A stretch of DNA of 34,173 bases. Origin: Candidatus Omnitrophota bacterium (GTDB taxonomy: Bacteria; Omnitrophota; Gorgyraeia; Gygaellales; Profunditerraquicolaceae). Where the stretch lies: contig JAQTUD010000004.1 in the NCBI GenBank assembly GCA_028710405.1, forward strand, positions 1-34,173, in the 5' to 3' direction. A program made the position numbers and the translations under genes. Shown piece by piece: positions 1,809-34,093 of the stretch (the first letter of the stretch is position 1; each line of letters opens with the position of its first letter). The notes beneath the pieces were generated by a model that had not been told where the DNA came from, did no database searches, and was given only the letters and a program-made list of their open reading frames with translations.

Positions 1809-2555
1809 ATGAGAAAAATATTATTAATAATTTTTTTATTATTAATTTTTAGTTTTGTAAAATCCAAGGCAGAAGAAACATCCATTGGAACCGCAGGAAA
1901 TCAAATAGAGACTAATGTAGTTTTATTGCAAAATAAAATTAGCGCCTTAGAGCAGAAAATTAGCACAGTTGATAAAGAGTTGGATAGAGTTTTGCAAACC
2001 TCGCAACATATTTGGCAGAATATTTTAACTGCTGTACTTACTATAATGGTGGCGCTCTTAGGAGCTAATATATTTAACACATTCTTTTATACTAGAACTA
2101 AAATAAATAAGGCCGAAGGATCATTAAGAAATGAGATAGCGGAAAAGCTGAAACAAATAAAGGGCGAATTTCAAGATAATGTTGATAATAAATTTAATAA
2201 GCTCAAAGATGAATACGATATTAAGTTCGATGAGTTAGATGCGGACATATGCGATGCTATTGGTAGGAATTATGTACAGGACAACCAAGAAGTCGGAGCT
2301 ATGTGGTTTGCCAGGTGTGTTGATAAATATATGGATCCAAAGAGATACCCTAACTTAGATAAAAAGACTGACGACTGGATTAAGGTTCGTATGGAGTGGG
2401 TCGTTGATAATCTGAAGAAAGGTGATAAATTGGATGAACCAAGATTTATCGCGGAACTCCAGGAAATTATATCAAGAATAGATGAAAATAAATATAAAGA
2501 ACAAAAAGAAGAAATACAAAAAGCATTAAAAGAAAATATTAATAAAACAGTATAA
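1809..2555 (+). CDS. Hypothetical protein, N-terminal signal/TM, coiled-coil, second TM; strongly AT-rich gene
   Basis: 248-aa ORF with RBS AGGAGG 7 nt upstream. Hydrophobic N-terminus MRKILLIIFLLLIFSFV and an internal TM (LTAVLTIMVALLGANIF). GC estimated by eye to be far below the flanking genes. Confidence 0.6.
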   Translation: MRKILLIIFLLLIFSFVKSKAEETSIGTAGNQIETNVVLLQNKISALEQKISTVDKELDRVLQTSQHIWQNILTAVLTIMVALLGANIFNTFFYTRTKINKAEGSLRNEIAEKLKQIKGEFQDNVDNKFNKLKDEYDIKFDELDADICDAIGRNYVQDNQEVGAMWFARCVDKYMDPKRYPNLDKKTDDWIKVRMEWVVDNLKKGDKLDEPRFIAELQEIISRIDENKYKEQKEEIQKALKENINKTV

Positions 2556-2561
2556 ATCTTG

Positions 2562-2585
2562 AATTCCGGAATTCCGGGGACTTAA
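2562..2585. repeat. Nested perfect palindromes gaattccggaattccgg (2x GAATTCCGG)
   Basis: ccggaattccgg (12 bp) and gaattccggaattc (14 bp) are each self-complementary. Lies in the 58-bp gap between the two AT-rich ORFs. Confidence 0.5.
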
Positions 2586-2613
2586 TTTCTAAAAAACAAA
2601 AGGGGAATGATTA

Positions 2614-2979
2614 ATGAGGGGGATTATAATATTCTTTATATTTATAATCTTGAGCACAGTTAATTTTGCATATGCGGAAAGTCAAGCAGATAAATTAGAG
2701 TTGATCGACAAACAAGATAATCCCAATATTATATACAAATCTAATCAGTATCAACTCATTATTGATAAACTAAAAGAATACACTACAGCAACAAGCGAAG
2801 AAGAAATCACTGCTTTAATATTTAAGGTTTACAGTGATTTAGAAAATAAATCTCCGGGACTTACTATTTATGAAGTTGCCGAAGAGATTAAAAAAACAGC
2901 AGGAATTCTCTACGATCAAGATGGCGGGAAGAAGCAAGATATTAGAAATATGGCAGCATTTTATATGACAACAAAATAA
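2614..2979 (+). CDS. Hypothetical small secreted protein (signal peptide), AT-rich
   Basis: 121-aa ORF. N-terminal IIIFFIFIILSTVNFAYA signal-like segment. No recognisable domain. Confidence 0.55.
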   Translation: MRGIIIFFIFIILSTVNFAYAESQADKLELIDKQDNPNIIYKSNQYQLIIDKLKEYTTATSEEEITALIFKVYSDLENKSPGLTIYEVAEEIKKTAGILYDQDGGKKQDIRNMAAFYMTTK

Positions 2980-3201
2980 GGGTAATTTCGGGGACGCAGT
3001 ACTTAATTATAAATCTTAGCGGGTGGATTGGCTGGGATTTCGAGGGACGTGGAGACAAGGAGCGGGCAAGGTTCACCCTATAAATAGATTGCTGTGAGAG
3101 CGACGCAGCCGACCCGAGCGAAGCCCCGCCACGCTGGGGCGGGGCGAGCGTTCCCGAGAAACCCAGACAAGCCAGCCGCGAGCGTTGGAAAGGAGTTAAG
3201 T

Positions 3202-3660
3202 ATGAAGAAATTATTCGTATTATCGTTAATCGTTTTATTTCTTACTCCTGCGCTTTGGGCGCAAGGGGAAGAGGATTTTTCGACGCCACTAGCGGCATTC
3301 CAAACTTATATCCGCGCTTGTCAGAGTCATGATTTTGATGCCGTAGACAATTGTTTCACCAAAGAGTTCAACAGGTTTAAAAAATCCAACAAGGAATATA
3401 TGAAACACCGCAACATGGGGCAATTGGATAATGAGCTAAGTTGCGTCTTGAATAAGGAGATCCAGGTTGACCTGCACAGCAGAAAAGCGATCATCTATCT
3501 CTACCCGGAAGATAGAAAAACGTCCCCTTATTTTATGACCAAAGAAGGCGGCCAATGGAAGATAGACGGAATGTTCATGTGGAATAACATAATTTTCGAT
3601 CAAAAAGACGAGTGGCATTGGGGCAACGGGAACAAGGAAAAGGCGTTTTTGAACAGCTGA
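3202..3660 (+). CDS. Hypothetical secreted protein; start moved to the internal ATG after the RBS
   Basis: AGGAG at 3191-3195, then ATG 3202 and signal peptide MKKLFVLSLIVLFLTPALWAQ. The longer ORF from 3094 would translate the GC-rich hairpin block (MRATQPTRAKPRHAGAGRA...) and is unlikely. Confidence 0.6.
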   Translation: MKKLFVLSLIVLFLTPALWAQGEEDFSTPLAAFQTYIRACQSHDFDAVDNCFTKEFNRFKKSNKEYMKHRNMGQLDNELSCVLNKEIQVDLHSRKAIIYLYPEDRKTSPYFMTKEGGQWKIDGMFMWNNIIFDQKDEWHWGNGNKEKAFLNS

Positions 3661-3663
3661 CAT

Positions 3664-4950
3664 ATGAGAGTTCTAGTTATCGGAAGCGGAGGACGGGAGC
3701 ATGCGCTGGTATGGTCGATAGCGCAGTCAAGGATGGTGGATAAGATCTTCTGCGCGCCGGGCAACGGCGGGATCTCTAAACTTGCGGAGTGCGTGGATAT
3801 CAAGGCCGATGATATAAAGAGGATATTGGATTTCGCCAGGAAAGAAAGAATAGACCTGACGGTAGTCGGCCCGGAAGTGCCTTTATCTGCCGGAATTTCT
3901 GATGAATTCATCAATCATAAAATAAAAGTATTCGGCCCCGGGAAAAAAGCCGCGCGCCTGGAGGCAAGCAAGGTTTTTGCCAAGGAGTTGATGGCAAAAT
4001 ATAATATTCCTACCGCAGCTTTCAAGATTTTTGATAACGCCGATTCCGCCAAGAAACATATTGAGAAGAACGGCGCCCCTTGCGTGGTCAAGGCCGATGG
4101 CCTGGCCCAGGGCAAGGGGGTAATTGTGGCCAAGACTATTGATGAGGCCAAAGATGCGGTAGATGCCATGATGCAGAAGAAGGTCTTTGGCGAGGCAGGA
4201 AGTAAGGTGATTATTGAAGAATGTCTAGTGGGGCAGGAGGCATCAATTTTAGTGATCACCGATTCTAAAGAAGTCATACCTTTGGCCTCGGCGCAAGACC
4301 ACAAGCGCATTTTTGATAATGACCAGGGCCCTAATACCGGCGGGATGGGGGCTTATTCTCCGGCGCCGATAGTAACCCCGAAACTCTTAGAAGAAATTTT
4401 AGATAAAGTTATTTATCGTGCCATAGACGGTTTGAACAAAGAAGGAATAGTTTATCGTGGTGTTTTATATGCCGGTATTATGCTAACCAAAGATGGCCCG
4501 AAGACCCTGGAATTCAACGTGCGTTTCGGAGATCCGGAGACGCAGGCGATACTGCCGCGGATGCGTTCAGACTTATTGGAGACAATGCTTGCGGTAAGCG
4601 AAGATAAGCTTAGCAAGGTAGCGAAATTAGGTGGGCTTAGCTGGGATAGCAGGCCTTGCGTGTGCGTGGTCTGCGCTGCCGGAGGGTATCCCGGAGATTA
4701 CCAAAAGGGCCAAGAGATTTTTGGCCTGCAAGAATTAGAGAATAACAAGGAAGCAGTGGTATTCCACGCCGGCACAAAAAAATCCGACGGTAAATATTTT
4801 ACCAATGGAGGCAGGGTGCTGGGGGTTACCGGTTTAGGCAATAATATTAGAGAGGCGATTGATAAGACATATCAGGCGGTAGATAAAATTCATTTTGAAG
4901 GGATGCATTATCGCAAGGATATCGGCAGAAGGGCGATATCCGAGGATTAG
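3664..4950 (+). CDS. purD: Phosphoribosylamine--glycine ligase (GAR synthetase)
   Basis: MRVLVIGSGGREHALVWSIAQS N-terminus and ATP-grasp region. Full length 428 aa. Confidence 0.9.
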   Translation: MRVLVIGSGGREHALVWSIAQSRMVDKIFCAPGNGGISKLAECVDIKADDIKRILDFARKERIDLTVVGPEVPLSAGISDEFINHKIKVFGPGKKAARLEASKVFAKELMAKYNIPTAAFKIFDNADSAKKHIEKNGAPCVVKADGLAQGKGVIVAKTIDEAKDAVDAMMQKKVFGEAGSKVIIEECLVGQEASILVITDSKEVIPLASAQDHKRIFDNDQGPNTGGMGAYSPAPIVTPKLLEEILDKVIYRAIDGLNKEGIVYRGVLYAGIMLTKDGPKTLEFNVRFGDPETQAILPRMRSDLLETMLAVSEDKLSKVAKLGGLSWDSRPCVCVVCAAGGYPGDYQKGQEIFGLQELENNKEAVVFHAGTKKSDGKYFTNGGRVLGVTGLGNNIREAIDKTYQAVDKIHFEGMHYRKDIGRRAISED

Positions 4951-4959
4951 GGAGGGGTT

Positions 4960-5439
4960 ATGGCAAAGGCGATCAGTATTATTATGGGAAGTAATTCGGA
5001 TCTGGAGATAGTGCAGGAATCTATCAATGTGCTCAAGGATTTCGGAGTAAGTTTTGAGGCCAAAGTCCTCTCCGCGCACAGGACCCCTAAAGAATTAGCC
5101 CAATACGTGGAGGCAGCCCCCAAGAGGGGGGTAAAAGTTTTTATCGCCGCTGCCGGCGGCTCGGCCGCCCTGGCAGGAGTAGTGGCCGCGCATACTACTT
5201 TACCGGTTATCGGTATTCCTATTGAAACTAAGAGTCTAAAGGGACTGGATTCCTTATTGTCCACGGTGCAGATGCCCGCGGGAGTGCCGGTAGCGTCTAT
5301 GGCCATAGGCAAGGCTGGCGCCAAGAACGCGGCCCTATTTGCCTTAGCGATATTAGGGATCACGGAAAAAAAGATCAACCTGAAATTACTAAAGTATAGG
5401 AAAGAATCTGCGGCGAAGATAAAGAGAATCAGATTATAA
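4960..5439 (+). CDS. purE: N5-carboxyaminoimidazole ribonucleotide mutase
   Basis: IIMGSNSD...[28 protein letters not shown] matches the PurE signature. 159 aa. Confidence 0.9.
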
Positions 5440-5442
5440 AGA

Positions 5443-5521
5443 TAAAGACAGCGGAAACACTTTCCTGCATATTCGTTTTAGCATCCCACGGAAAGCGTTT
5501 CCTCTAAGCTGGTTACGGAAA
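5443..5521. promoter_or_regulatory. Two 13-bp palindromes GGAAA-N3-TTTCC plus a half-site, upstream of the tsaC operon (candidate operator)
   Basis: ggaaacactttcc (5443-5455), ggaaagcgtttcc (5480-5492), cggaaac half-site (5515-5521). The same palindrome recurs at 16692-16727. Confidence 0.4.
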
Positions 5522-5535
5522 CAATTGAGTTGGTT

Positions 5536-6597
5536 ATGAGTACGACAAAGATTATTAAGATTGATCCGCTAAGCCCTAATCCGGAGGTCCTCCGGCTGGC
5601 AGCCGAGATTTTAGTTAAAGGCGGGTTGGTGATCATCCCTACTGAAACTGTCTATGGGGTAGCGGCGAATATGCAGGATAAAAAGGCGCTGGAGAGATTG
5701 TATGGAATAAAGCAGCGGCCTAAAGATAAACCTTTTTCTTTGCTTATAGACTGGAAACTGCGAATTGAAGAGTTCGCCATAAATATACCGGTGGCGGCTT
5801 ATAAACTGGTGGATAAATTCTGGCCCGGGCCGTTGACAGTGATACTAAAATCAAAAGATGGAGGTAAGGTGGGGCTGCGTATGCCGGATAATGAGGTTGC
5901 CCGCGGGATCATTCATCTGGCTGGGGTCCCCCTGGTTTGTCCGTCGGCGAATATCTCCGGTAAACCCGCTCCAACAGATTTCCAGCAGGCTATTCAAGGG
6001 CTGGAGGGGTTAGTGGATCTGGCTATAGACGCCGGCAACCCCAGGATACAAGTGGAGTCCACGGTCATAGACCTGACTACTGAACCGGTGCAAGTCTTAA
6101 GGGAGGGGGCGATTAAAAAAGAAGAGGTTGAGGCAGTGATTAATAAGAAGGTCGTGCTTTTTGTCTGCACGGGAAACTCCTGCCGCTCAGTAATAGCGGA
6201 AGCTTTACTAAAGAAGAAACTAAAAGAAAAGAACAGGAACGATGTGGAAGTCTTATCCGCCGGCACAATGTTAACCGGCGGCATGGGCGCTACTGAATCC
6301 ACGAAAGAAGTCCTGGCCAGGGAGGGGATAGATGTCTCCGGGCATCTCTCCCGGTCTATCAACGCGGGGATGATCAAGAAATCTGACCTTATCCTAGTAA
6401 TGGAGAAGGCGCATGAGAATAGGGTCCTGGAGATCGCCCCGGAAGTAAAAAATAGACTTTTCTTATTAAAGGAATTTGCTAAAATAAATGGGAATAACCT
6501 TGATATCGCCGATCCTATCGGCAAGCCTCTGGAATCTTACAGCCGGACCCTTGAGGTGATCAAAGAAGCAGTAGAGAAAGTGAGTGTACTGATATGA
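5536..6597 (+). CDS. tsaC: Fusion protein: L-threonylcarbamoyladenylate synthase (TsaC/YrdC/Sua5 domain) + low-molecular-weight protein phosphatase (Tyr/Arg, CX5R)
   Basis: N-terminal about 200 aa LAAEILVKGGLVIIPTETVYGVAANMQD...LRMPDNEVARGII is the YrdC fold. C-terminal about 150 aa VVLFVCTGNSCRSVIAEALL (CX5R P-loop) with a ...DIADPIG Asp-Pro general-acid motif is LMW-PTP. Start is ATG 5536 (a TTG at 5530 is also possible). Confidence 0.8.
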   Translation: MSTTKIIKIDPLSPNPEVLRLAAEILVKGGLVIIPTETVYGVAANMQDKKALERLYGIKQRPKDKPFSLLIDWKLRIEEFAINIPVAAYKLVDKFWPGPLTVILKSKDGGKVGLRMPDNEVARGIIHLAGVPLVCPSANISGKPAPTDFQQAIQGLEGLVDLAIDAGNPRIQVESTVIDLTTEPVQVLREGAIKKEEVEAVINKKVVLFVCTGNSCRSVIAEALLKKKLKEKNRNDVEVLSAGTMLTGGMGATESTKEVLAREGIDVSGHLSRSINAGMIKKSDLILVMEKAHENRVLEIAPEVKNRLFLLKEFAKINGNNLDIADPIGKPLESYSRTLEVIKEAVEKVSVLI

Positions 6598-7055
6598 AAA
6601 AGATCGTTATTGCCTCTGACCACGGAGGTTTTGGCCTGAAAGAAAAATTAAAGCCCTACCTGGAAAATAAGGGTTTCCAGGTAAAAGACCTGGGTACGTA
6701 TTCCAAAGAAAGCTGCGACTATCCCTGTTACGCTTATTCTTTAGCCAAGGAAATATCACAGGGCCGGTATAAAATAGGTATTCTTATATGTAAAAGCGGT
6801 ATCGGGAATTCCATAGTAGCAAACAGGCTCCCCGGAGTGCGCGCCGCGCTCTGCTATAACATAAAAGCCGCCCGCCTTTCCCGTCGGCATAATGATAGTA
6901 ACGTTCTGCTCTTGGCTTCTCTTTTCAGCAATACATCTCAAGCAAAGAAGATCACCGCGGCCTGGCTGAACACTGAATTTGAAGGCGGCAGGCATTTAAG
7001 GCGTGTTAAACAGATCACGAAAATTGAAAAGGAAATCAAAAGATGGAAAGCCTAA
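6594..7055 (+). CDS. rpiB: Ribose-5-phosphate isomerase B
   Basis: [19 protein letters not shown]...[16 protein letters not shown] matches RpiB/LacAB. ATGA overlap with the upstream gene. Confidence 0.85.
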
Positions 7056-8299
7056 AACATTTAAAGAAGACAGACCCGGAAATTTACACGGCAATAAATG
7101 AAGAGATAAAAAGGCAGGAGGATAACCTGGAGTTGATCGCCTCGGAGAATTTCGCGTCTCTGGCGATCCTGGAGGCCCAGGGGTCGGTCCTGACCAATAA
7201 GTATGCCGAGGGGTACCCCGGCCATCGCTGGTACGGAGGATGCGAATACGTTGACCAGGCAGAGCAGTTGGCTATAGACCGGGCCAAGGAACTCTTTGGC
7301 GGGGATCATGTGAATGTCCAGCCGCACTCCGGAAGCCAGGCGAATATGGCGGTGTATTTTGCGGCGCTTAACCTCGGGGATACGGTCCTGGCAATGGACT
7401 TAGCTGCCGGCGGGCACCTCACCCACGGGCATCCGCATAATTTTTCTGGGATGTTTTACAAAATATTCGGTTATGGCGTGGATAGAAAGACAGAGGAGCT
7501 GGATTATGACAATATATTAGTCTTAGCCAAAAAACATAAGCCCAAGATGATCCTTGCCGGGGCCTCGGCATATCCGCGCAGGATAGATTTCAAGCAATTC
7601 CGTAAGATCTGCGATAAAGTCGGCGCTTATCTTTTTGTGGATATGGCCCATATAGCAGGACTGGTGGCTGCCGGGGTCCATCCCACGCCAGTGCCTTACG
7701 CGGAATTCGTGACCTCTACCACTCATAAAACTTTACGCGGGCCGCGCGGCGGATTTGTGATCTGCCGCAAGGAATTCGCCAAGAAAATAGATATGCAGAT
7801 CTTCCCCGGTATCCAGGGAGGGCCGCTGATGCATGTTATCGCGGCAAAAGCGGTAGCCTTTAAGGAAGCCGGTAGCGCCAAATTCCGGGAGTATCAGCGC
7901 CAGATCATCCGTAATTCCCGGGCTTTATCCGCGGGCCTGGCGCAAAAAGGGTTCCGTATTGTCTCCGGAGGGACAGACACGCATTTATTCCTGGTGGATC
8001 TCTGCGACAAGAGGATCACCGGTAAGGACGCCTCTTGGGCATTGGGAGAGGCCAGTATTACTGTAAACAAGAACCTCATACCTTTTGATAGAAAGAGCGC
8101 CTCGGTCACCAGCGGTATCCGTCTGGGGACAGCGGCAGTGACTACGCGCGGGATGAAGGAAGCGCAGATGCGCCAGATCGCTGTACTTATCAGCGCGGCG
8201 GTGGAAGCCAGCGACGACCCGCAGAAATTAAAAGAGATCAAGACAGAGGTCTTGAGCCTGGCCAAGAGATTTCCTTTGTACCCGGAGTTAAAAAGATGA
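7043..8299 (+). CDS. glyA: Serine hydroxymethyltransferase
   Basis: [11 protein letters not shown]...[20 protein letters not shown]...[14 protein letters not shown] signature. 418 aa. Confidence 0.95.
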
Positions 8300-15730: not shown

Positions 15731-16669
15731 ATGAAGATAAAAGATACCGAGATTAAAGTCATCTGTGGCGATATTACGGAATTAAAGGTTGATGCCATTG
15801 TAAATGCCGCCAATAATAAGTTAGTGATGGGCGGGGGAGTGGCGGGGGCGATCAAAAGAAAGGGCGGCAAGAGCATTGAGGATGAGGCGGTAAAAGCTGG
15901 CCCGATAAAGATTGGCGAGGCGGTGGCGACCGGTGCGGGAAACCTGCCGGCCAAATATGTGATCCACGCCGCGACCATGGGGATGGACTTTCAGACCGAT
16001 GAGATAAAGATCCGGGATTCTGCAGCCAGCGCCCTGCGGGTCGCGCGGGAATTAAAAGTAAAATCAATTGCCTTTCCGGCTTTAGGTTGCGGCACAGGAG
16101 GCTTTCCGCTATTGGCCTCAGCAAAGGTGATGGCGCAAGAGGTCTTCCGGCAATTAAAAGAAGAGGAGGTGGGGCTTAAGGAAATAATCTTTTGTCTTTA
16201 TGATAAAGAAGCGCAGGAGGTTTTCCAGAAGGGAGTGATCGGTTACCTGGAATATATCACCCAGAAGTTGCAAAATGGCCCTTTTACCACGGTAGATGCG
16301 ATAATCGAGATTTCCGGGGGGATTGTAATAATTGAGCGCAGCAATCCGCCCTTTGGCTACGCGCTTCCCGGAGGTTTTGTGGATTATGGAGAGAGCCTGG
16401 AGGAGGCGGTAAAGAGAGAGGCCAAGGAGGAGACTAACCTGGATTTAGTGGGCCTGGAACAGTTCCACACTTATTCGGCACCGCAGCGTGACCCGCGTTT
16501 TCACACTATCGGGACGGTATTTATTGCCCAGGGCAAGGGAAACCCCAAGGCTGGCGATGACGCTAAGGCCTTGAAAATAGTGGAGTTAAAAGATATAGAA
16601 AAATTAGATTTTGCCTTTGACCATAAAGAGATCATCCGGGATTATATAAAAGCGGCCGTCTCGCGTTAG
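15731..16669 (+). CDS. Macro domain - NUDIX hydrolase fusion (ADP-ribose processing)
   Basis: N-terminal IKVICGDITELKVDAIVNAANNKLVMGGGVAGAIKRKGG is a macro domain. C-terminal GGFVDYGESLEEAVKREAKEETNL is a Nudix box. Confidence 0.75.
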   Translation: MKIKDTEIKVICGDITELKVDAIVNAANNKLVMGGGVAGAIKRKGGKSIEDEAVKAGPIKIGEAVATGAGNLPAKYVIHAATMGMDFQTDEIKIRDSAASALRVARELKVKSIAFPALGCGTGGFPLLASAKVMAQEVFRQLKEEEVGLKEIIFCLYDKEAQEVFQKGVIGYLEYITQKLQNGPFTTVDAIIEISGGIVIIERSNPPFGYALPGGFVDYGESLEEAVKREAKEETNLDLVGLEQFHTYSAPQRDPRFHTIGTVFIAQGKGNPKAGDDAKALKIVELKDIEKLDFAFDHKEIIRDYIKAAVSR

Positions 16670-16777: not shown

Positions 16778-16947
16778 GTAAAAAGACACTTTGACAATTT
16801 GGTAAAAATGTCCTACTGAAAAAGGCAAACTAGCAGTAATGCTGGGGCGCAAAGCGACAGCCCCGACGTAAGTCGGGGGGCTGCGTTGCCAAAGAGGCTT
16901 GAAACCCTAAAGACTGCCTTTAGGGTTTATTTGTTTAGCCCTAAGTT
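16778..16947 (+). ncRNA. Candidate sRNA / structured leader of about 170 nt from promoter to first intrinsic terminator
   Basis: Transcript predicted from the promoter above. Contains an irregular hairpin of about 14 bp capped by GNRA tetraloop gtaa (16848-16891) and a 10-codon uORF (atg 16839..taa 16871). Ends at terminator 16913-16947. Confidence 0.35.
16913..16947 (+). terminator. Rho-independent terminator (11-bp stem + T-rich tail)
   Basis: aaaccctaaag-actgc-ctttagggttt followed by atttgttt. Confidence 0.6.
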
Positions 16948-17089: not shown

Positions 17090-17353
17090 ATGAAAGAGAA
17101 GATAAATACCCACAGAGTAGTGACTTTTCTGACCCGGGAAGAATTAGATTTTTTGGATAAGCTGGAGAAGGATATGATGTTCTCCACGGGCAGGCATATC
17201 TCCCGTTCCCAGATCATCCAGGATATGGCCGGCCTGCTCACTGAGACCCAGATGGATGCATCAGGCGTAAAGGATGATACAGAATTACGCAGCAGGATAA
17301 TGCAGGCTATCGCTAAATTAGTCAAGGAAGAACAAGACAAAAACAGGGGGTAG
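17090..17353 (+). CDS. Ribbon-helix-helix (CopG/Arc/MetJ-like) DNA-binding protein
   Basis: HRVVTFLTREELDFLDKLEKDM...GRHISRSQIIQDMAGLL fits a beta-strand / helix A / G-x-S N-cap / helix B RHH pattern. GGAGG RBS. Confidence 0.65.
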   Translation: MKEKINTHRVVTFLTREELDFLDKLEKDMMFSTGRHISRSQIIQDMAGLLTETQMDASGVKDDTELRSRIMQAIAKLVKEEQDKNRG

Positions 17354-17357
17354 GCTG

Positions 17358-17549
17358 ATGAAAACCTACACTGAAGAAGCCAGGTTAAAGACATTAGCGT
17401 CTAAGGGGGGAGTAATGTATTTTCTGGTAGAGAAACCGGACCGGATCTACCGCGGAATGGTCTTATTATCCCCGGCGCACAACCATAACCGCAAGAGGAT
17501 CGTCTGTATGAAGGTATATAAGATAAATGAAGAAGGGAGGGCTAAATGA
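17358..17549 (+). CDS. Hypothetical 63-aa protein, translationally coupled downstream of the RHH gene
   Basis: AGGGGGTAGG RBS. ORF MKTYTEEARLKTLASKGGVMYFLVEKPDRIYRGMVLLSPAHNHNRKRIVCMKVYKINEEGRAK. No recognisable domain. Its stop overlaps the next ATG (ATGA). Confidence 0.45.
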   Translation: MKTYTEEARLKTLASKGGVMYFLVEKPDRIYRGMVLLSPAHNHNRKRIVCMKVYKINEEGRAK

Positions 17550-17656
17550 GGCGTTTTTCCCGTAGATCACACAAGAAGGCCAGAAAGAATGATAAAAAAC
17601 ACACCGGGTTCCTTGAGGCGCTCAGGCTTTATGCCGGTATGCCGGTGGAAGTATAA
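17546..17656 (+). CDS. Basic His/Arg/Lys-rich micropeptide (36 aa), paralog 1
   Basis: MRRFSRRSHKKARKNDKKHTGFLEALRLYAGMPVEV. GGGAGGG RBS 8 nt upstream. ATGA coupling to the upstream ORF. Confidence 0.4.
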   Translation: MRRFSRRSHKKARKNDKKHTGFLEALRLYAGMPVEV

Positions 17657-17671
17657 ACAGGAGGGATAAAA

Positions 17672-17770
17672 ATGAAGAGAACTCATCGCAGCGGGCACAA
17701 AAAACACAGGAGGCAGAAAAGACAATTTGGTATAATGGCCGCGTTAAAATGCATCTTCGGATGTCGGTAA
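17672..17770 (+). CDS. Basic His/Arg/Lys-rich micropeptide (32 aa), paralog 2
   Basis: MKRTHRSGHKKHRRQKRQFGIMAALKCIFGCR. GGAGGG RBS 7 nt upstream. Same frame as paralog 1, separated by TAA + 15 nt. Shares the M[RK]R..R[SR][SG]HKK[AH]R[KR] pattern. Confidence 0.4.
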   Translation: MKRTHRSGHKKHRRQKRQFGIMAALKCIFGCR

Positions 17771-27013: not shown

Positions 27014-28285
27014 ATGTTTATTGTATATGACATAATATTTTTGATCATAGCGATATTTTTTCTGCCGGTGTATTTATTCCGCGGGAAATTCCACGGCGGA
27101 TTCTGGGCGCGGCTGGGATTCTTCTCCAAAGACCTGAAATTAGATAAACCCATCTGGGTGCACGCGGTGAGCGTGGGAGAGGCGATGGCCGCCAAGGAAT
27201 TAATCGCGGGGTTAAGAAAGGCCTATCCGGCAAAGAGGCTGGTTATCTCTACGGTTACGCCTACGGGGAATAAAATCGCCCGCGGCCTTGCCACCGAAAC
27301 AGACCTAGTGACTTATCTGCCCTTAGATTTCAGCTTTAGCGTGCGCACTGCCATAAAAAGAATAGACCCTTCTTTATTTATCATAGTTGAGACCGAACTC
27401 TGGCCGAATCTAATTAGTTATCTGCATAAGAAAAAAATCCCCGTAGTCATTGTCAACGGCAGGCTCTCCGATGATTCCTTCAGGGGTTATTCAGCGATAA
27501 AGTTCTTGTTAAAATCCGTGCTCAAAAAAGTGAGCCTTTTTTGCGTGCAGAGCGAGAATGATAAGCGTAAGTTAATCTCGCTGGGCGTAAGCCAGGAGGA
27601 TATTCAGGTTACCGGGAATATGAAGTTTGACGCCACCGGCCTTAAGATCGAGGCGAACACTCTTATCCAGTGCCGCCGGAATTTAGCGCTGGAGGAGACG
27701 GATAAGCTTTGGGTCTGCGGCTCAACACACCCCGGAGAAGAAAAGATGCTTCTTGAGGCCTATAAAAATTTACTCAAAAGTTACCCCGCGCTTAAGTTAC
27801 TGATCGCCCCGCGGCATCCGGAGCGCGCGCAGGAAGTGGCGGATTTAATAAAGCGTTTTAATTTTGAACCCGTAAGGTTAAGCCTGCTGAACTTAAGAAC
27901 TGAAGAACTAAAGAACTTAAGAGCTGTGTTTATCCTGGACACCGTCGGCCAGATGATGGATTACTACGCCCTGGCGGATATTGTTTTTGTCGGCGGCACT
28001 TTAGTTAAAAAGGGCGGGCATAATATTTTAGAGCCGGCCTCCCTGGGTAAAGCCATTCTCTTTGGGCCGTATATGTTCAATTTCCGGGATATCGCGGAGC
28101 TATTTTTAGCACGCCAGGCCGCGATTCTGGTGTATAATACCACGGAGTTAGAAAAAAAGATAAGCCAGCTCTTAGATGCTCCTTCCGGCGCGCTGGTATT
28201 AGCTCAGAGGGCAAGGGATACTATTACCTTGGGCTCCGGGGCTACGACAAGGAACCTGGAACTGATAAAGAGGTACGCGCGTTGA
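27014..28285 (+). CDS. waaA: 3-deoxy-D-manno-octulosonic acid (KDO) transferase
   Basis: N-terminal TM, ...IWVHAVSVGEAMAAKELI... and glycosyltransferase region typical of KdtA/WaaA. Confidence 0.85.
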   Translation: MFIVYDIIFLIIAIFFLPVYLFRGKFHGGFWARLGFFSKDLKLDKPIWVHAVSVGEAMAAKELIAGLRKAYPAKRLVISTVTPTGNKIARGLATETDLVTYLPLDFSFSVRTAIKRIDPSLFIIVETELWPNLISYLHKKKIPVVIVNGRLSDDSFRGYSAIKFLLKSVLKKVSLFCVQSENDKRKLISLGVSQEDIQVTGNMKFDATGLKIEANTLIQCRRNLALEETDKLWVCGSTHPGEEKMLLEAYKNLLKSYPALKLLIAPRHPERAQEVADLIKRFNFEPVRLSLLNLRTEELKNLRAVFILDTVGQMMDYYALADIVFVGGTLVKKGGHNILEPASLGKAILFGPYMFNFRDIAELFLARQAAILVYNTTELEKKISQLLDAPSGALVLAQRARDTITLGSGATTRNLELIKRYAR

Positions 28286-29487
28286 GCACGCCAAAGATCA
28301 AACGGATACTGATCATTTCTTCGGATAAAAGCCTGATCGACGTTTTGACTTTTTGTTTTGACGGATGGGGTTATGAGGTCTTTCTGCAGCATAATATGGC
28401 CCCGGACATAGATGTGATAAAGAGGGTATCTCCGGACGTGATCGTGGTGGATATTGACGCCGCGCACAAATCTGAAATCGGTATCTGCCGGACGCTAAAA
28501 GACGATTTTATGACCGCTTTCGTGCCGGTAATCGCGATCATCAATAAACGCCAGCTAAGGCAGCAGCTTCTGGATATCAGGCAGGGAGTGGATGATTACC
28601 TGATCAAGCCGCCTGACCCGCTGGACCTGCGCACCAGGGTCGAGATGGCGATCAAGAGGTCGCAGTATAGCATTTACACCAGCCCGCTTACCGGCCTGCC
28701 CGGCGGCAGGATCATTGAGGAGACCATTAAGGATAAGATAAAAGAAGGATTCCCGTTGTCGTTCGCACATCTTGATATAGACAATTTTAAATATTTCAAT
28801 GATGCCTACGGATACCTCAGGGGCGACAGGGTGATCATGCAGACTGCCTACCTGCTCTATGCCACCATTAAGAGGTTCGGTAATAACAGGGATTTTATCG
28901 GCCATATCGGCGGAGACGACTTTATGTTCATCAGCACCCCGGAAAAATGCGCGCAGATCTGCCATAATTTTATCCAACTCTTTGAGAAGGTGACTCCTTT
29001 TCATTATTCGTCCAAAGAGAGGGAGTGTGGTTTTATCGTAGCCAAGGACAGGGCGCGTAAGATAAAAGAGATCCCGCTGATGAGTATTTCTATAGCAATA
29101 GTGAATAAATCCGGGCCGCAGCATTTTAAGAACGCGGTGGAGATAAACGAGAAGATGGCGGAGATAAAATGTTATCTCAAGAGTATGCCGGGGAGTAAAT
29201 TTATGGCCGACCGCCGCAGCGCCACACCTGAATATGCGCAGGGCCCGCAATTCCGGCCCAAAGGAGAAAAGACAATCAGTTTATACAAGCCCCTGGGGCA
29301 GATCTTGATAGAGAGAAGCCTGGTTACTCCGGAGCAGCTTGATGAGGCACTCAAGACCCACTGGAAGAGGGGGGTTCAGCTGGGGGAGATCCTTAAGGAA
29401 TTGAAGCTTATCAGAGACATAGACCTACAGGAGGCATTAAAGGCGCAAGGGTCAATACCGCTTGCGCGTATTCAGGAGCAGCGATGA
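28282..29487 (+). CDS. Response-regulator receiver + degenerate GGDEF (GGDDF) + C-terminal MshEN-like tandem motif (putative c-di-GMP signalling/receptor protein); TTG start
   Basis: REC: RILIISSDKSL...DVIVVDID...VPVIAII. GGDEF-domain core with HIGGDDF. C-terminal PLGQILIERSLVTPEQLDEALKTH + QLGEILKELKLIRDIDLQEALKAQ resemble the 24-aa MshEN/T2SSE_N c-di-GMP-binding repeats. Confidence 0.7.
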   Translation: MSTPKIKRILIISSDKSLIDVLTFCFDGWGYEVFLQHNMAPDIDVIKRVSPDVIVVDIDAAHKSEIGICRTLKDDFMTAFVPVIAIINKRQLRQQLLDIRQGVDDYLIKPPDPLDLRTRVEMAIKRSQYSIYTSPLTGLPGGRIIEETIKDKIKEGFPLSFAHLDIDNFKYFNDAYGYLRGDRVIMQTAYLLYATIKRFGNNRDFIGHIGGDDFMFISTPEKCAQICHNFIQLFEKVTPFHYSSKERECGFIVAKDRARKIKEIPLMSISIAIVNKSGPQHFKNAVEINEKMAEIKCYLKSMPGSKFMADRRSATPEYAQGPQFRPKGEKTISLYKPLGQILIERSLVTPEQLDEALKTHWKRGVQLGEILKELKLIRDIDLQEALKAQGSIPLARIQEQR

Positions 29488-30902
29488 GAAAGATGCGTTT
29501 TATCTTTAGCAGTTTCTGTGTCAAGGTCATCATAACGCTTATTCTTTCTATATTTTTTGTTATGGCTTTAAGCAGCCTGCTTGTCTATAAATTTGCCCTG
29601 GATTCTCAATTCCATCAATTAAGGGAGAGGTTGAAGATAATCGCCTCTACCGCCGCGTTGATGGTGGATGCCGAGTCGCTTAAACAGGTCCCCTTGAACG
29701 CCGAGGGGATAAACAGCCCGGCTTATCTGGCTGTGGCCGCTAAGTTAAAAAAGATCAAAGAAGTAAATCCCACCCTGAAATATATTTATACCATGGCCAG
29801 GACCGATGATCCGCGTTTCCTACAATTCGTGGTTGACCCGGACCCCATGGTCAATGTCCGCGGCAAAACAACAGTTACTTCTTACCCTGGTGACAGGTAT
29901 GATACCATCTCTTGTCCGGATATAATTCAGGCCTTTGATGGGCCGGCCGCGGATAAGAAATTGGTAATTGACGATTGGGGGGTTTTTCTCTCCGGGTATG
30001 CCCCGGTTCATGATAAATCCGGCAGGGCGCAATACATCCTGGGCGTGGATATGGCAGCCCAAGATATCTATGCCTTGCAGGGGCAGGTAAGCCGCCGGGT
30101 GATGCTGGTGTTAGGCATCGGTTTTCTAATGTCGGTTCTTTTTGGGCTTTTTATTTCTTTCGGGATCACCAGCCGGATCAGGAAGCTGGTAGAGGGGACG
30201 CGGCGCATTGCTGCCGAAGACCTGGAATATAAAGTAGAAGTAAAGGGGCACGATGAGATCAGCGAATTAGCCAGCTCTTTTAACCTTATGGCCACCAGCC
30301 TTTCTGAATCCAAGGGCAGGCTGCAGGATTATTTCTACCGGGTAGTGCAGTCCCTGGTGCGCATCCTGGAAGCAAAGGATGCTTACACCAAGGGGCATTC
30401 GGATAGGGTTGCCAATTACGCCCAGGCGATCGCCCTGAATATGGGGTTTGCCCAGAACAAGGTAGAGCTTGTGAGAAAGGCCGCGCAGCTGCACGATATA
30501 GGAAAGTTGGCGGTCCATGAAGGCATCCTGAACAAAAAGGAGGCCCTTACCGAGGAGGAATGGAGAATTATCAAAGAGCATCCCATAATCGGGGAAGAGG
30601 TATTAAAGCCGGTCCTGCTGGATGAGGAGATGTTGTCTATGGTCAGGTCGCATCATGAGCGTTACGACGGGGGCGGATATCCCGACAAGATAAAAGGCGA
30701 CGCGATAAATATTTTTGCCCAGATAATTTCCGTGGCTGACGCTTATGACGCCATGACCTCTCCGCGCGCATACCGAGAAGCCAGGGATAAAGAAAAAGCC
30801 ATAACGGAATTAAAAAATAATAGTGGCAGCCAGTTTAATACCCAGGTAGTAAAGGCATTCCTTAAAGTATTGGCCCAGCAAGAAAAGGAGGCAGGGAAAT
30901 GA
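29484..30902 (+). CDS. Membrane sensor HD-GYP phosphodiesterase (periplasmic sensor-TM-HAMP-HD-GYP)
   Basis: Two TMs flanking an approximately 170-aa periplasmic domain, HAMP-like linker, HD...LHDIGK...HHERYDGGGYPD HD-GYP motifs. Confidence 0.8.
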   Translation: MRKMRFIFSSFCVKVIITLILSIFFVMALSSLLVYKFALDSQFHQLRERLKIIASTAALMVDAESLKQVPLNAEGINSPAYLAVAAKLKKIKEVNPTLKYIYTMARTDDPRFLQFVVDPDPMVNVRGKTTVTSYPGDRYDTISCPDIIQAFDGPAADKKLVIDDWGVFLSGYAPVHDKSGRAQYILGVDMAAQDIYALQGQVSRRVMLVLGIGFLMSVLFGLFISFGITSRIRKLVEGTRRIAAEDLEYKVEVKGHDEISELASSFNLMATSLSESKGRLQDYFYRVVQSLVRILEAKDAYTKGHSDRVANYAQAIALNMGFAQNKVELVRKAAQLHDIGKLAVHEGILNKKEALTEEEWRIIKEHPIIGEEVLKPVLLDEEMLSMVRSHHERYDGGGYPDKIKGDAINIFAQIISVADAYDAMTSPRAYREARDKEKAITELKNNSGSQFNTQVVKAFLKVLAQQEKEAGK

Positions 30903-31864
30903 AAGCCGTAGAGATAACCGCCAAGGACCTCAGGCCGGAAGATTTCATTAAAGAAAAAGTAAAAGATATTTCTCAGGCGGTTGGTCAAGGCCTGGCGATC
31001 AACGCGCTCTCCGGAGGAGTGGATTCCTCCGCGGTCACTATGCTGGGGCACAAGGCCCTGGGGGATAGGTTAAAGACCTATTTCATCAATAACGGCATTA
31101 TGCGCCAGGGGGAGCCGGAAGAGATAGTTTCTATATTCAAGAGATTAGGCGTGCCCGTGGAAGTCATCGACGCCCAGGATAATTTTTTCTCGGCCTTAAA
31201 AGGGGTTACTGACCCGGAGAAGAAGAGGGAGGCGATCACCCAGACTTTCTACAAAGATGTATTTGCTGAGCTGGTGAAAAAGAGCGGCGCCAAATATCTG
31301 CTCCAGGGCACGATCCTTACTGATGTGGATGAAACAGTCGCCGGGATAAAAAGACAACACAATGTCTTTATGCAATTAGGCATAGACCCGCAGGCAGCTT
31401 TCGGATATAAAATTATTGAGCCACTGGTTGAGTTGCGTAAGGATGGAGTAAGAAAAGTCGCTGCGGCCTTAGGGATGCCGGAGAAGATATATAACCGTAT
31501 GCCTTTTCCCGGCCCGGCTTTAGCTGCCAGGGTCATCGGGGAGGCTACTCCGGAGAGGATAAAGGTGGCCAGGCTCGCCACCATGATCGTGGAAGAAGAG
31601 TTATCCGCAAGCCGGGCCTTTCAGTACATGGCAATTTTACATCAGGATAGGGTCACCGGCATGCGGGATGGTAAAAGGGACTTTGGTCTGCAGATTGAAA
31701 TCCGCTCCTGGGATAGCACTGACGCCCGGAAAGCCCAGCCGACCAGATTACCATATGAAATCTTAGATAAACTGGCCAGCCGGATAGTCGGGGAGGTCCC
31801 GGGAGTAGTAAGCGTTACTTATAATATTACCCAGAAGCCGCCTTCTACTATAGAGGCGGTTTAA
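30899..31864 (+). CDS. guaA: Stand-alone GMP synthase ATP-pyrophosphatase (PP-loop) subunit, GuaA C-terminal-domain homologue
   Basis: PP-loop SGGVDSS, ...QGTILTDVDE..., dimerisation domain MPFPGPALAARVIGE. No glutamine amidotransferase domain in this ORF. Confidence 0.7.
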   Translation: MKAVEITAKDLRPEDFIKEKVKDISQAVGQGLAINALSGGVDSSAVTMLGHKALGDRLKTYFINNGIMRQGEPEEIVSIFKRLGVPVEVIDAQDNFFSALKGVTDPEKKREAITQTFYKDVFAELVKKSGAKYLLQGTILTDVDETVAGIKRQHNVFMQLGIDPQAAFGYKIIEPLVELRKDGVRKVAAALGMPEKIYNRMPFPGPALAARVIGEATPERIKVARLATMIVEEELSASRAFQYMAILHQDRVTGMRDGKRDFGLQIEIRSWDSTDARKAQPTRLPYEILDKLASRIVGEVPGVVSVTYNITQKPPSTIEAV

Positions 31865-31881
31865 CTTCAGATAGGATAAAG

Positions 31882-32607
31882 ATGCCATTAGAGATAAGAG
31901 TAGGGCAGAAGAATAATATCATCAAGTTGGACCTGGCCGGCCGCATTGATATAGACTCCGCAAACCTCATTGAGGTCATCGGACAATGCCTGCACGACGG
32001 ATACACCGATATACTCTGTAATTTTGAAGAAGTGGAGTTTATTGATTATATGGGTGTTTCGCTGATCGTGGTTGCCTACAAAGAGATCGCCAATAACCGC
32101 GGGAGGATGAAATTCCTGAATATCCCGACGCATCTTAGGGGGATATTCTCTATCTGCGGGTTGGATAAGATCATTGAAATATACGCCGAAGAGGACGCGG
32201 CGGTAAATAGTTTTAGCGAGGATAAGGCGATAGAGAATATCAAGAAGATGCAGTTACGGCGCCGCTTTAAGCGCCTGCCTATTGATATCAAGGTGGAGTT
32301 GAAAGCTGTTCAGCAGAATAGCCCGGCTTGTTATAAGGTAGATATACTGGATTTAAGCGGAGTAGGCGCGTATATATTCGGCTGTGATAAATTCAAGCTG
32401 GGTGATGATGTGGTGATAAGGCTGAAGCTTTCCCCCAAACAGGAGCAGATAGACCTGGAGGCCAGGGTAGTCTGGCTCTCCGACAAACAGGTGCAGCATC
32501 AGATCCACCCCGGGATGGGAGTGGAATTCCGTAATATTCCCACCACCCTGCAGCAGAAACTCGTGGAATTCATTGAAAGAAACCTCTCTTTTACCTCTAC
32601 GGAATAA
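31882..32607 (+). CDS. STAS (anti-sigma-factor antagonist-like) - PilZ fusion protein
   Basis: N-terminal STAS (IKLDLAGRIDIDSAN...EVEFIDYMGVSLIV...). C-terminal PilZ with RRRFKR (RxxxR) and DLSGVGAYI (DxSxxG). Confidence 0.7.
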   Translation: MPLEIRVGQKNNIIKLDLAGRIDIDSANLIEVIGQCLHDGYTDILCNFEEVEFIDYMGVSLIVVAYKEIANNRGRMKFLNIPTHLRGIFSICGLDKIIEIYAEEDAAVNSFSEDKAIENIKKMQLRRRFKRLPIDIKVELKAVQQNSPACYKVDILDLSGVGAYIFGCDKFKLGDDVVIRLKLSPKQEQIDLEARVVWLSDKQVQHQIHPGMGVEFRNIPTTLQQKLVEFIERNLSFTSTE

Positions 32608-32729: not shown

Positions 32730-32769
32730 CATACTTCTTATAGTTGCATTTATAACGCGGAGGTTTATA

Positions 32770-33042
32770 ATGGGATGGAAGGTCTTTTTTATGACATTTG
32801 GGGCGGTATTTGTGGCTGAATTGGCGGATAAGACCCAGTTGGTGGGGATAGGCATGAGTGCTAAGTCCGGTAAGCCAGCCTGGGTATGGCTGGGTTCTGT
32901 CTGCGGCTATATGGTGGTAACATTGATCTCGGTTATCATCGGCGCGCTTGGCGCCAAATACCTTAACCCTGAAGTAATCAGGTATCTGGGAGGCTCAATA
33001 TTTATTATTATGGGTTTATTGATGTTTTTAAAGCTGGTATAG
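32770..33042 (+). CDS. Single-repeat UPF0016 (GDT1/TMEM165-like) membrane protein
   Basis: GGAGG RBS then ATG 32770. Motif ELADKTQL (E-x-G-D-K-T type) in the first TM. 3 TM, 90 aa. The upstream in-frame extension lacks an RBS. Confidence 0.6.
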   Translation: MGWKVFFMTFGAVFVAELADKTQLVGIGMSAKSGKPAWVWLGSVCGYMVVTLISVIIGALGAKYLNPEVIRYLGGSIFIIMGLLMFLKLV

Positions 33043-33049
33043 GAGTAAA

Positions 33050-34093
33050 ATGCGCGAGTATCTCTATAAAATAGCCACAGATAAGATCCAGGGGTTTATC
33101 CCCGGCCTGATAAAGGCCGCCTTCTTTTTCTTATCTATTATATATGGCCTGTCAGTAAGGGGCGCTATTTTCTTCAGCCGGATTTTTCCTTGCCGCCTGG
33201 GTTGTAAAGTAATCAGTGTGGGTAATATTACAGTGGGGGGGACCGGTAAGACAACCCTGGTGGAATATATCGCCCGCTATTTAAAAGATAGCGGCCATAA
33301 GGTGGCGATTTTAAGCCGCGGCTATAAGAGAAAAAGCACCAGTAGTGAAAATATGGGCGATGAACCTTATATGTTATCTAAGAATTTATCCGATATCCCG
33401 GTGATAGTAAATAAGGATAGGGCTAGCGGCGCCCTGCGCGCGATAATAGAGTATCAGACGGATACGGTTATTTTAGATGACGGGATGCAGCAGTGGCGCC
33501 TGCGCAAGGATTTAGAGATCATTGCCATAGACGCGGTTTCTCCTTTTGGAAACCGTCATCTTCTGCCACGCGGCATATTGCGTGAGCCTTTATCCGGGCT
33601 TAAGCGCGCTGATATCTTTATCCTGACTAAGTCTGATTTGGCGCAGAATAATATAGAAGAGATAAAGGGGTTACTGGGGCGCGTCAACCCCAGGGCGAAG
33701 ATCTTTGAATCTATCCACCAGCCTTTGGGTTTTTACCAGATCGGCGGTAAGGAGGAATTATTCAGCCCGCGGGCATTCACAGGTAAGCCCGCGGTCATAT
33801 TTTGTGCTATCGGCGATCCGGATTCCTTTGAAAAAACAATTAAGAACTTAGGGATAGAGGTAGCTTTATCTTTTAATTTTCCTGATCATCATCACTACGG
33901 TCAGAAAGACCTGGAGCGGATCACCAAAGTTGCCCAGGCAAGAAATATTGATTTGATTATTACTACGCAGAAGGACGCAGCCAGGCTTGACCGGCAACTG
34001 CAGGCACGGATATTAGTGTTACGTATCGGAATAAAAATAACCAAAGATGAAGATAAATTCCGCGATAGACTACTTAAGCTGTATTCTCTTTAG
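33050..34093 (+). CDS. lpxK: Tetraacyldisaccharide 4'-kinase
   Basis: Walker A VGNITVGGTGKTT, LpxK fold, 347 aa. Confidence 0.85.
   Translation: MREYLYKIATDKIQGFIPGLIKAAFFFLSIIYGLSVRGAIFFSRIFPCRLGCKVISVGNITVGGTGKTTLVEYIARYLKDSGHKVAILSRGYKRKSTSSENMGDEPYMLSKNLSDIPVIVNKDRASGALRAIIEYQTDTVILDDGMQQWRLRKDLEIIAIDAVSPFGNRHLLPRGILREPLSGLKRADIFILTKSDLAQNNIEEIKGLLGRVNPRAKIFESIHQPLGFYQIGGKEELFSPRAFTGKPAVIFCAIGDPDSFEKTIKNLGIEVALSFNFPDHHHYGQKDLERITKVAQARNIDLIITTQKDAARLDRQLQARILVLRIGIKITKDEDKFRDRLLKLYSL

Follow-up and report, generated by a model that had tools for sequence, protein, structure and literature searches.

The window analysed here is a contig of 34,173 nt from a Candidatus Omnitrophota metagenome-assembled genome (MAG), with nearly all its genes on the + strand. 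It carries four consecutive open reading frames (ORFs) of this strand, referred to below as G1 to G4, exactly at the positions given in a preliminary description of the sequence. G1 (28282..29487) encodes a 401-aa protein composed of a predicted pseudo-receiver, a GGDEF-family domain with the motif HxGGDDF and a C-terminal MshEN_N unit, identified by profiles and alignments; G2 (29484..30902) a putative membrane-sensor HD-GYP phosphodiesterase; G3 (30899..31864) a stand-alone GMP synthase subunit B (ATP pyrophosphatase); and G4 (31882..32607) a fusion of a STAS and a PilZ domain. The preliminary description took these genes for a self-contained cyclic di-GMP (c-di-GMP) module of an undescribed operon type, in which the GGDDF protein was likely inactive and no obviously active cyclase was present.

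What we observe of the domains, the conservation of their motifs, the synteny counts and the clade to which G1 belongs leads us to another reading, which we hold with moderate confidence: c-di-GMP genes have come to lie side by side in this lineage without forming a conserved module, and G1 would likely be a working cyclase, G2 the degrader, G4 a receptor and G3 a passenger. The cluster most likely arose by insertions next to the conserved receptor gene G4.

The GGDDF domain of G1 and its clade

The GGDEF-family domain of G1 covers residues 135-312 (28684..29217, + strand). Its scores are above the cutoffs of both Pfam PF00990 (52.5 bits for a cutoff of 23.8, with only positions 5-113 of the 161 of the profile covered) and TIGR00254 (50.1 bits for a cutoff of 37.4). 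The GG[DE]EF signature is absent and reads GGDDF (residues 210-214, nt 28909-28923, + strand); the preliminary assignment of G1 as a REC-GGDEF protein with a GGDDF motif was correct. The domain also has an insertion of ~20 residues, at about residues 244-265. The best solved sequence matches of G1 are PleD (E 7e-21) and DgcR (E 3e-17). These are also the best by fold, the top Foldseek matches of the GGDEF domain being PleD, WspR and DgcR. G1 shares with these three proteins the same layout, i.e. a receiver (REC), a linker helix and a GGDEF domain, and all the metal and GTP ligands align. It differs from them by HxGGDDF in place of RxGG[DE]EF, by the lack of an RxxD inhibitory site (I-site) and by a receiver without the acidic pair and the Thr, and it has two extra elements, the ~20-residue insertion and the C-terminal MshEN_N.

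The G1 family occurs in 134 species-level genomes, virtually all of them from Omnitrophota, with 55-74% identity. Across 80 orthologs, 43 of the 401 alignment columns are invariant. Residues D165, D167, K170, N173, D182, H208, G210, G211, D212, D213 and K300 are each found in 80/80 orthologs, and the final F of GGDDF in 79/80. In the profile alignment these positions correspond respectively to D327, D329, K332, N335, D344, R366, G368, G369, E370, E371 and K442 of PleD. All metal, phosphate and guanine ligands are thus kept in G1 (80/80 for the equivalents of PleD D327, K332, N335, D344 and K442), and relative to PleD two substitutions are fixed, Asp for E371 and His for R366. At the specificity position stands an Asp (D182), as in GTP-specific enzymes, while Hypr enzymes have a Ser.

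These two substitutions are clade-wide. An exhaustive profile search among 1.84 billion representatives gave 1,319 matches at the threshold E<=1e-30, and the clade statistics given here are those of the best 150 of these 1,319. In 147 of the 150 the motif is covered, and in every one of them it reads [GA]GDD[FY] (130 GGDDF, 16 AGDDF and 1 GGDDY). His occupies the position of PleD R366 in 145 of these best representatives, the D/K/N/D set is found in 139 and the equivalent of K442 in 146. The match scores range from 218 to 691 bits, whereas PleD reaches about 77 bits, so that two profile columns by themselves do not account for the clade. A fully canonical receiver (acidic pair, D57, T/S87 and K109) is found in 105 of the 141 representatives that have both REC and the motif. 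Most members are REC-GGDDF proteins of ~310 aa with no further output domain, and elsewhere the same domain is fused to EAL, to HD-GYP or to hybrid kinases. The source names include Calditrichales, Chlamydiota and Omnitrophota, and the proteins are annotated just as “response regulator” or “GGDEF-like”. Such a distribution is that of a clade signature and not of a lesion, and G1 does not have the appearance of a decayed cyclase. It is more likely the Omnitrophota ortholog within a large, uncharacterised family of probably active HxGGDDF enzymes.

The precedent for activity of a GGDDF domain comes from Geobacter. The GGDDF domain of GSU1937 made cyclic GMP-AMP (cGAMP) and c-di-GMP in a biosensor assay in E. 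coli, and its GADDF mutant was dead (PMC8835794). GSU1937 is likened to G1 by motif: both have GGDDF and neither has an EAL or HD-GYP partner domain, and many homologs of GSU1937 carry the same motif. It differs from G1 by its Hypr Ser and its N-terminal membrane domain, where G1 has an Asp, a REC-like N-terminus and MshEN_N. The invariance of GGDD, the clade with canonical receivers and the active GSU1937 indicate that the cluster probably contains its own cyclase. Catalysis by G1 thus appears plausible, and these same data, together with the conservation of the metal and GTP ligands, go against the view of GGDDF as likely inactive. The cyclase reported as missing from the cluster probably is G1 itself; a window-wide search found no other GGDEF gene in the 34 kb.

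The receiver and the C-terminal unit of G1

The REC-like domain of G1 (residues 7-132, 28300..28677, + strand) was delimited from the alignment with PleD D1 and from its match to Response_reg (PF00072), the score of which, 28.8 bits, is under the cutoff of 30.2. Among the orthologs the receiver residues D57 (79/79) and K109 (80/80) are kept. The acidic pair D9/D10 of PleD is replaced by S13/S14 (S/T-S in the orthologs) and an Ile (I87) stands at the position of PleD T83 in 79/79. From these residues G1 appears to have a pseudo-receiver that has lost the Mg/phosphoryl pocket. As to the I-site, a frequent though not universal RxxD located five residues ahead of the motif, G1 reads NxxD; its Arg is found in 0/80 orthologs, which mostly have NxxD as well. 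Degenerate receivers are associated with MshEN within the clade, being present in 11/14 representatives with MshEN vs 25/127 without (Fisher p 1.7e-5). This association leads us to propose that control would have been handed over from phosphorylation to c-di-GMP binding, MshEN_N also taking the place of the absent I-site.

The unit of 53 residues at the C-terminus of G1 is MshEN_N-like (residues 337-389, 29290..29448, + strand). The pair of MshEN-like repeats of the preliminary description is confirmed here by profile search, the curated NCBIfam model NF053729 (“c-di-GMP-binding domain, MshE-related”) matching at 48 bits for a cutoff of 38 over profile positions 1-53 of 53. Two 24-aa repeats with a 5-aa spacer between them make up the unit; of 24 homologs 23 could be scored, and all 23 have exactly this spacing. 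A profile built from the last ~75 residues matches residues 8-63 of V. cholerae MshE (5htl) in register (E 3e-8), and the same profile also matches the c-di-GMP-binding GSPII domains of PilF. The AlphaFold model of the C-terminal fragment (predicted local distance difference test, pLDDT, of 74.7) has c-di-GMP-bound MshE 5htl as its top Foldseek match, with a root-mean-square deviation of 0.9 Å (56 columns, 34% identity). All of the following 15 Foldseek matches are MshEN or GSPII domains too, so that the top 16 are of this type. By its model, the C-terminal unit of G1 is thus a genuine four-helix MshEN_N.

In terms of the relaxed published MshEN pattern, motif 1 of G1 agrees at 10/11 and motif 2 at 8/11 specified positions. 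The leading Arg is absent from both repeats, with Pro in motif 1 and a hydrophobic residue in motif 2. This absence is not disqualifying because GSPII-B of PilF, which has K167 and L196 at the leading positions, binds with a dissociation constant of 6 nM, and of 2 nM for K167L (PMC11731258). Compared to the known MshEN/GSPII receptors (V. cholerae MshE, T. thermophilus PilF GSPII-B, E. coli NfrB and Bdellovibrio Bd2402), G1 likewise has two repeats of 24 residues, the 5-residue spacer and, in its model, a four-helix bundle. It differs from them in having the MshEN_N half only, in carrying it at the C-terminus of a GGDEF protein, and by the His instead of Gln in motif 1. Pfam MshEN (PF05157) directly follows a G1-type motif in relatives of ~480 aa, among which is another Omnitrophota protein, and G1 would therefore be a truncated REC-GGDDF-MshEN protein. 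The MshEN partners reported in the literature are ATPase, GT2 (glycosyltransferases), REC, HD-GYP, CheA/CheX, adenylate/guanylate cyclase and kinase; in the searchable literature we came across no GGDEF-MshEN fusion.

Altogether, G1 would make c-di-GMP from GTP by its HxGGDDF domain. With a receiver devoid of its Mg/phosphoryl pocket and no RxxD, the four-helix MshEN_N unit would be the part that binds c-di-GMP and senses the product. We infer from this a feedback logic in which control has shifted from phosphorylation to c-di-GMP itself, either as feedback or as local sensing.

Gene order and the neighbours of G1

The gene just upstream of G1 is kdtA/waaA, encoding the 3-deoxy-D-manno-octulosonic acid (Kdo) transferase (27014..28285, + strand; Pfam Glycos_transf_N 207.7 bits, NCBIfam PRK05749 378 bits). 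Its stop codon overlaps by 4 nt the start codon of G1, a TTG with AAGAGG as ribosome-binding site. The G1/G2 and G2/G3 junctions also overlap by 4 nt and G3 is separated from G4 by 17 nt. Because these junctions overlap or nearly touch, G1-G4 are probably co-transcribed from kdtA onward. Downstream of G4 are found a gene for a GDT1-family membrane protein (32767..33042, + strand; Pfam GDT1 75.6 bits) and lpxK, encoding the lipid A 4'-kinase (33050..34093, + strand; Pfam LpxK 268 bits), which ends a conserved kdtA...lpxK block.

To describe the context of G1 we used 80 genome loci searched by tblastn with all the proteins of the window, and for G4 the best 80 of at least 413 metagenome stretches with relatives, plus two long contigs; the counts were taken on MAG and metagenome contigs of uneven lengths, and individual loci are designated by L numbers. 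By tblastn, none of the 80 G1 loci and none of the about 80 G4 loci has the four-gene order. Recurrence is limited to pairs: about 6 loci have G1-G4, 2 have G2-G4 and 1 or 2 have G1-G3. In about five of the 80 G1 loci, G4 directly adjoins G1. A conserved four-gene operon is thus rejected, and the notion of a self-contained module or of an undescribed operon type has to be abandoned, since the order recurs nowhere and G3 is a housekeeping gene almost never adjacent to the others.

The position of G4 is the fixed part of the arrangement. In the informative loci kdtA is upstream of G4 in 39/49, often abutting or overlapping the start of G4, lpxK is downstream in 38/48 and GDT1 is downstream in 24/48; examples of this fixed kdtA-STAS-PilZ-lpxK position are found in loci L083-L164 (e.g. 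L089 2396-4322 and L084 2759-9848). The window is this conserved block, topA-xerC-kdtA-[STAS-PilZ]-(GDT1)-lpxK, with G1-G2-G3 inserted at the kdtA/G4 junction. Elsewhere the kdtA/STAS-PilZ junction recurrently takes unrelated genes such as greA, deaminases and UbiA.

The neighbours of G1 in its 80 loci are mostly unrelated housekeeping genes (EF-G-like, MscS, heptosyltransferase, metY). Other ORFs with c-di-GMP domains nevertheless amount to 54/944 around G1 vs 7/690 around G4 (p 2e-7), and G1 therefore favours c-di-GMP-rich neighbourhoods but not a fixed operon. Within the G1 loci the enrichment right beside G1 is mild (7.4% vs about 5%) and is clear only against the G4 flanks. A strong local enrichment directly beside G1 was rejected on these values. 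In 11/75 loci the gene immediately upstream of the G1 ortholog encodes a PAS-GGDEF-HD-GYP protein with a GGEEF motif and an RxxD (loci L009, L012, L016, L020, L021, L030 and L038, at about 6300-7990; representative L030_9, 547 aa). According to its motifs this hybrid would provide the GGDDF protein with a canonical cyclase/phosphodiesterase as partner.

Other neighbours of G1 were also noted. In 13 loci the gene at -1 encodes an EF-G-like GTPase with a Lys/Glu-rich coiled-coil N-terminal extension of ~350 residues (e.g. L067_6, 1,038 aa), and in 6 loci a LysE-family gene occupies this position. In L167, a contig of 914 kb, the G1 ortholog is closely preceded (5530-6306) by two tandem genes for single-domain PilZ proteins and then a divergent LysE-family gene.

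G4 is composed of a STAS domain (residues 1-112, 31882-32217, + strand; Pfam STAS 48 bits, TIGR00377 61 bits for a cutoff of 53.45) and a PilZ domain (residues 126-232, 32257-32577, + strand; PF07238 59.8 bits for a cutoff of 22.5). The PilZ assignment made beforehand is well founded, as both RxxxR and DxSxxG are intact (RRFKR at residue 127 and DLSGVG at 157). In 20 homologs of G4 the Arg residues (RRRFKR), L158, S159 and G162 are invariant, the first position of the second motif being D or N, and the identity across Omnitrophota is 66-78%. Binding of c-di-GMP by this PilZ would thus be expected from its motifs.

The STAS profile of G4 matches SpoIIAA (E 2.6e-12). At residue 55 it reads DYMG, invariant in the 20 homologs, with a Tyr at the position of the phospho-Ser, which we take to be S58 of B. 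subtilis SpoIIAA. Of the partner-switching STAS output proposed in the preliminary description, the SpoIIAA-type STAS domain remains, but classical switching by a kinase and a phosphatase is unlikely because an invariant Tyr replaces the phosphorylatable Ser. Near G4 no kinase or phosphatase partner gene was found. More likely the switch would be the c-di-GMP occupancy of PilZ, which the non-phosphorylatable STAS would pass on to a partner protein. An MlaB-like reading of the STAS domain was retained only as a remote idea: its profile matches only the SpoIIAA/RsbV type and no MlaB is present among the PDB matches. G4 therefore shares its STAS profile with the SpoIIAA/RsbV antagonists and its RxxxR and [D/N]xSxxG with the single-domain PilZ receptors. 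It is unlike both by the fusion of STAS and PilZ, by the change of the phospho-Ser into an invariant Tyr and by its kdtA-lpxK location. A literature search on STAS-PilZ fusions found nothing specific.

The intact signature motifs of G2 (HDIGK at residue 337 and HHERYDGGGYP at 390) and its two membrane segments agree with the earlier call of a periplasmic-sensor HD-GYP phosphodiesterase. By hydropathy and Pfam profiles (HD_5 117 bits, HD 78.6 and HAMP 51.9) it is made of a first transmembrane segment (3-41), a periplasmic region of ~160 aa (~42-201), a second transmembrane segment (202-232), a HAMP (228-274) and the HD-GYP domain (291-454). The periplasmic domain has no Pfam match even at E<=10, and relatives of G2 are few (53-62% identity in L013 and L088). 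To judge by its motifs G2 is an intact membrane-sensor HD-GYP phosphodiesterase, which would degrade c-di-GMP in response to a periplasmic cue.

G3 has GMP_synt_C and the PP-loop SGGVDS and no glutamine amidotransferase (GATase) domain, as expected for the stand-alone GuaA ATP pyrophosphatase subunit already recognised in it; its TIGR00884 score is 310.7 bits, vs a cutoff of 338.75. The best solved relative is the “GMP synthase subunit B” of P. horikoshii (2dpl, E 1e-84), followed by that of M. jannaschii (6jp9, 2e-74). G3 matches these subunits of the two-subunit, archaeal-type GMP synthase in length, PP-loop and C-terminal dimerisation domain, with no notable difference. The 120 best relatives of G3 are all of 311-333 aa, stand-alone and without a GATase domain, with 77-83% identity. 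A special guaA paralog is thus ruled out, 120/120 relatives being stand-alone and the best solved match being a subunit B. The window-wide search found no GATase subunit gene in the 34 kb. G3 is treated here as the ordinary split GuaA subunit B of the phylum, a housekeeping passenger.

Some purine genes were seen in the vicinity of G1 or G4. In L165, the nearest relative with context, the order is kdtA-G1-guaAB, with neither G2 nor G4. Genes for purF-like amidophosphoribosyltransferases directly precede G1 or G4 in L014 (6556-7998), L081 (5613-6983) and L085 (6586-7953). In L166 guaAB comes after an EF-G-like gene (3006-6011) with a product of about 1,000 aa. A recurrent linkage of purine genes (guaAB, purF-like) to these c-di-GMP genes in a few close relatives is only weakly indicated.

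The window contains a full-length c-di-GMP-I (GEMM-I) riboswitch (16814..16893, + strand; Rfam RF01051 73.3 bits for a gathering score of 35, E 9e-13), 11 kb upstream of G1-G4. Its presence on the same contig indicates that the organism uses c-di-GMP. It is preceded by a TTGACA-like box and followed by a hairpin with a T-run and by four small ORFs of the + strand (17090-17353, 17358-17549, 17546-17656 and 17672-17770; 87, 63, 36 and 32 aa respectively). By eye the 87-aa product looks ribbon-helix-helix-like, and the last two (36 and 32 aa) are rich in Lys and Arg. These ORFs have no Pfam match, and neither they nor the riboswitch itself (blastn) have relatives in 1.8 Mb of Omnitrophota loci. 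No riboswitch was found near G1 in eight other loci, and a search of the literature on c-di-GMP in Omnitrophota gave nothing specific.

Three other features of the window were recorded. A low-GC stretch (1809-3660; GC 0.32 at 2001-3000 vs about 0.47 elsewhere) lies between a SPFH/Band-7 gene and purD, and its ORFs (1809-2555, 2614-2979 and 3094-3660) have no Pfam match. Two genes encode fusion proteins, one of Sua5/YrdC with a low-molecular-weight phosphotyrosine phosphatase (5530-6597, 355 aa) and the other of a Macro domain with NUDIX (15731-16669, 312 aa).

Alternative readings and significance

Several points weigh against an active G1 that senses its product. The activity of GSU1937, the sole precedent, was measured in E. 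coli on a Hypr-type GGDDF domain in an artificial fusion; the GGDDF-EAL protein PA3258 of P. aeruginosa has no cyclase phenotype; and the Glu at the fourth position was proposed as the cross-dimer catalytic base (PMC8835794), so that the shorter Asp could impair catalysis. The change of Arg366 into His is a further modification of the active site (A-site), and conservation of the GTP ligands is equally expected of a domain that senses GTP without catalysis. With regard to MshEN_N, no homolog fully fits the relaxed pattern. In G1 the last residue of motif 1 is His, and a Lys occupies a hydrophobic position of motif 2; the protein ends 12 residues past motif 2 and MshEN_C (PF05157) is absent from it. 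G1 could then be a catalytically dead GGDEF protein acting, like PopA, as a c-di-GMP receptor or adaptor by its MshEN_N, while c-di-GMP is made elsewhere in the genome and the cluster holds a degrader and receptors with no synthase. The departure at the catalytic-base position, the His and the case of PA3258 all favour such a protein, as does the good support for the MshEN_N unit. Other cyclases are also available, the PAS-GGDEF(GGEEF)-HD-GYP gene being directly upstream of G1 in at least 11 related genomes. PopA-type receptors are indeed REC-containing GGDEF proteins that bind but do not make c-di-GMP, as the preliminary description viewed G1. PopA, however, binds c-di-GMP via an intact I-site with a decayed A-site, and the receptor-type GGDEF domains in general (PopA, PelD, FimX) keep or use the I-site while the A-site decays. 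G1 is the reverse, with the Arg of the I-site absent and the A-site invariant in 80/80. Without catalysis it would be hard to explain the REC-GGDDF proteins of ~310 aa, most of the clade, whose receivers are canonical and which lack any further output domain, and GSU1937 is active. We consider a dead receptor unlikely for these reasons.

The HxGGDDF domain may also be an enzyme with another product or another use of the substrate, making a different cyclic dinucleotide or linear pppGpG, or hydrolysing GTP as the GGDEF domain of GdpP does; G1 would then not be a standard diguanylate cyclase. Both active-site changes, Asp for E371 and His for R366, go together throughout the clade (in 145 to 147 of its top representatives), which would suggest altered chemistry, and the GGDDF domain of GSU1937 does make cGAMP. 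But the base-specificity Asp (D182, 80/80) is that of GTP-specific cyclases and not the Hypr Ser, and the domain co-occurs with the c-di-GMP-specific EAL, HD-GYP, MshEN and PilZ. Such altered chemistry seems improbable to us. Even less probable, and in our view very unlikely, is a function of G3 in the module, coupling the supply of GMP/GTP, or the recycling of GMP from HD-GYP, to c-di-GMP turnover. Translational coupling to G2 by the 4-nt overlap, the kdtA-G1-guaAB order of the close relative L165 and the purF-like genes abutting G1 or G4 in L014 and in L081/L085 would speak for it. However, G3 lies no more than 8 kb away from G1 in 1/80 genome loci and near G4 in none of about 80. It is 77-83% identical phylum-wide, this being the only form seen, it resembles the archaeal-type subunit B, and in L166 guaAB follows an EF-G-like gene. 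As a housekeeping GMP synthase subunit B, G3 would be a passenger.

The preferred reading thus remains a probable cyclase and a putative degrader, together with a passenger, placed by chance of gene order beside a conserved candidate receptor; the four-gene “module” as such would be a local accident. A broader proposal can be made, in which HxGGDDF defines an unrecognised and widespread enzymatic subclass of GGDEF, MshEN_N replaces both phospho-control and the I-site in Omnitrophota, and STAS-PilZ couples c-di-GMP to lipid-A and outer-membrane biogenesis. In this complete form it is tentative and rather unlikely.

Two of the elements are new in degree and not in kind, namely the HxGGDDF clade, with its MshEN-bearing pseudo-receiver branch universal in Omnitrophota, and the STAS-PilZ gene fixed within lipid-A genes. 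If the clade is active, the censuses that call GGDDF “degenerate” miscount cyclases in Omnitrophota, Calditrichota, environmental Chlamydiota and other poorly studied phyla. If G1 indeed senses its product through MshEN instead of an RxxD I-site, this cyclase would represent a new regulatory design. Finally, a putative c-di-GMP receptor fixed among the Kdo/lipid-A genes of a whole phylum of ultra-small bacteria would point to a link of c-di-GMP with envelope assembly that can be tested.

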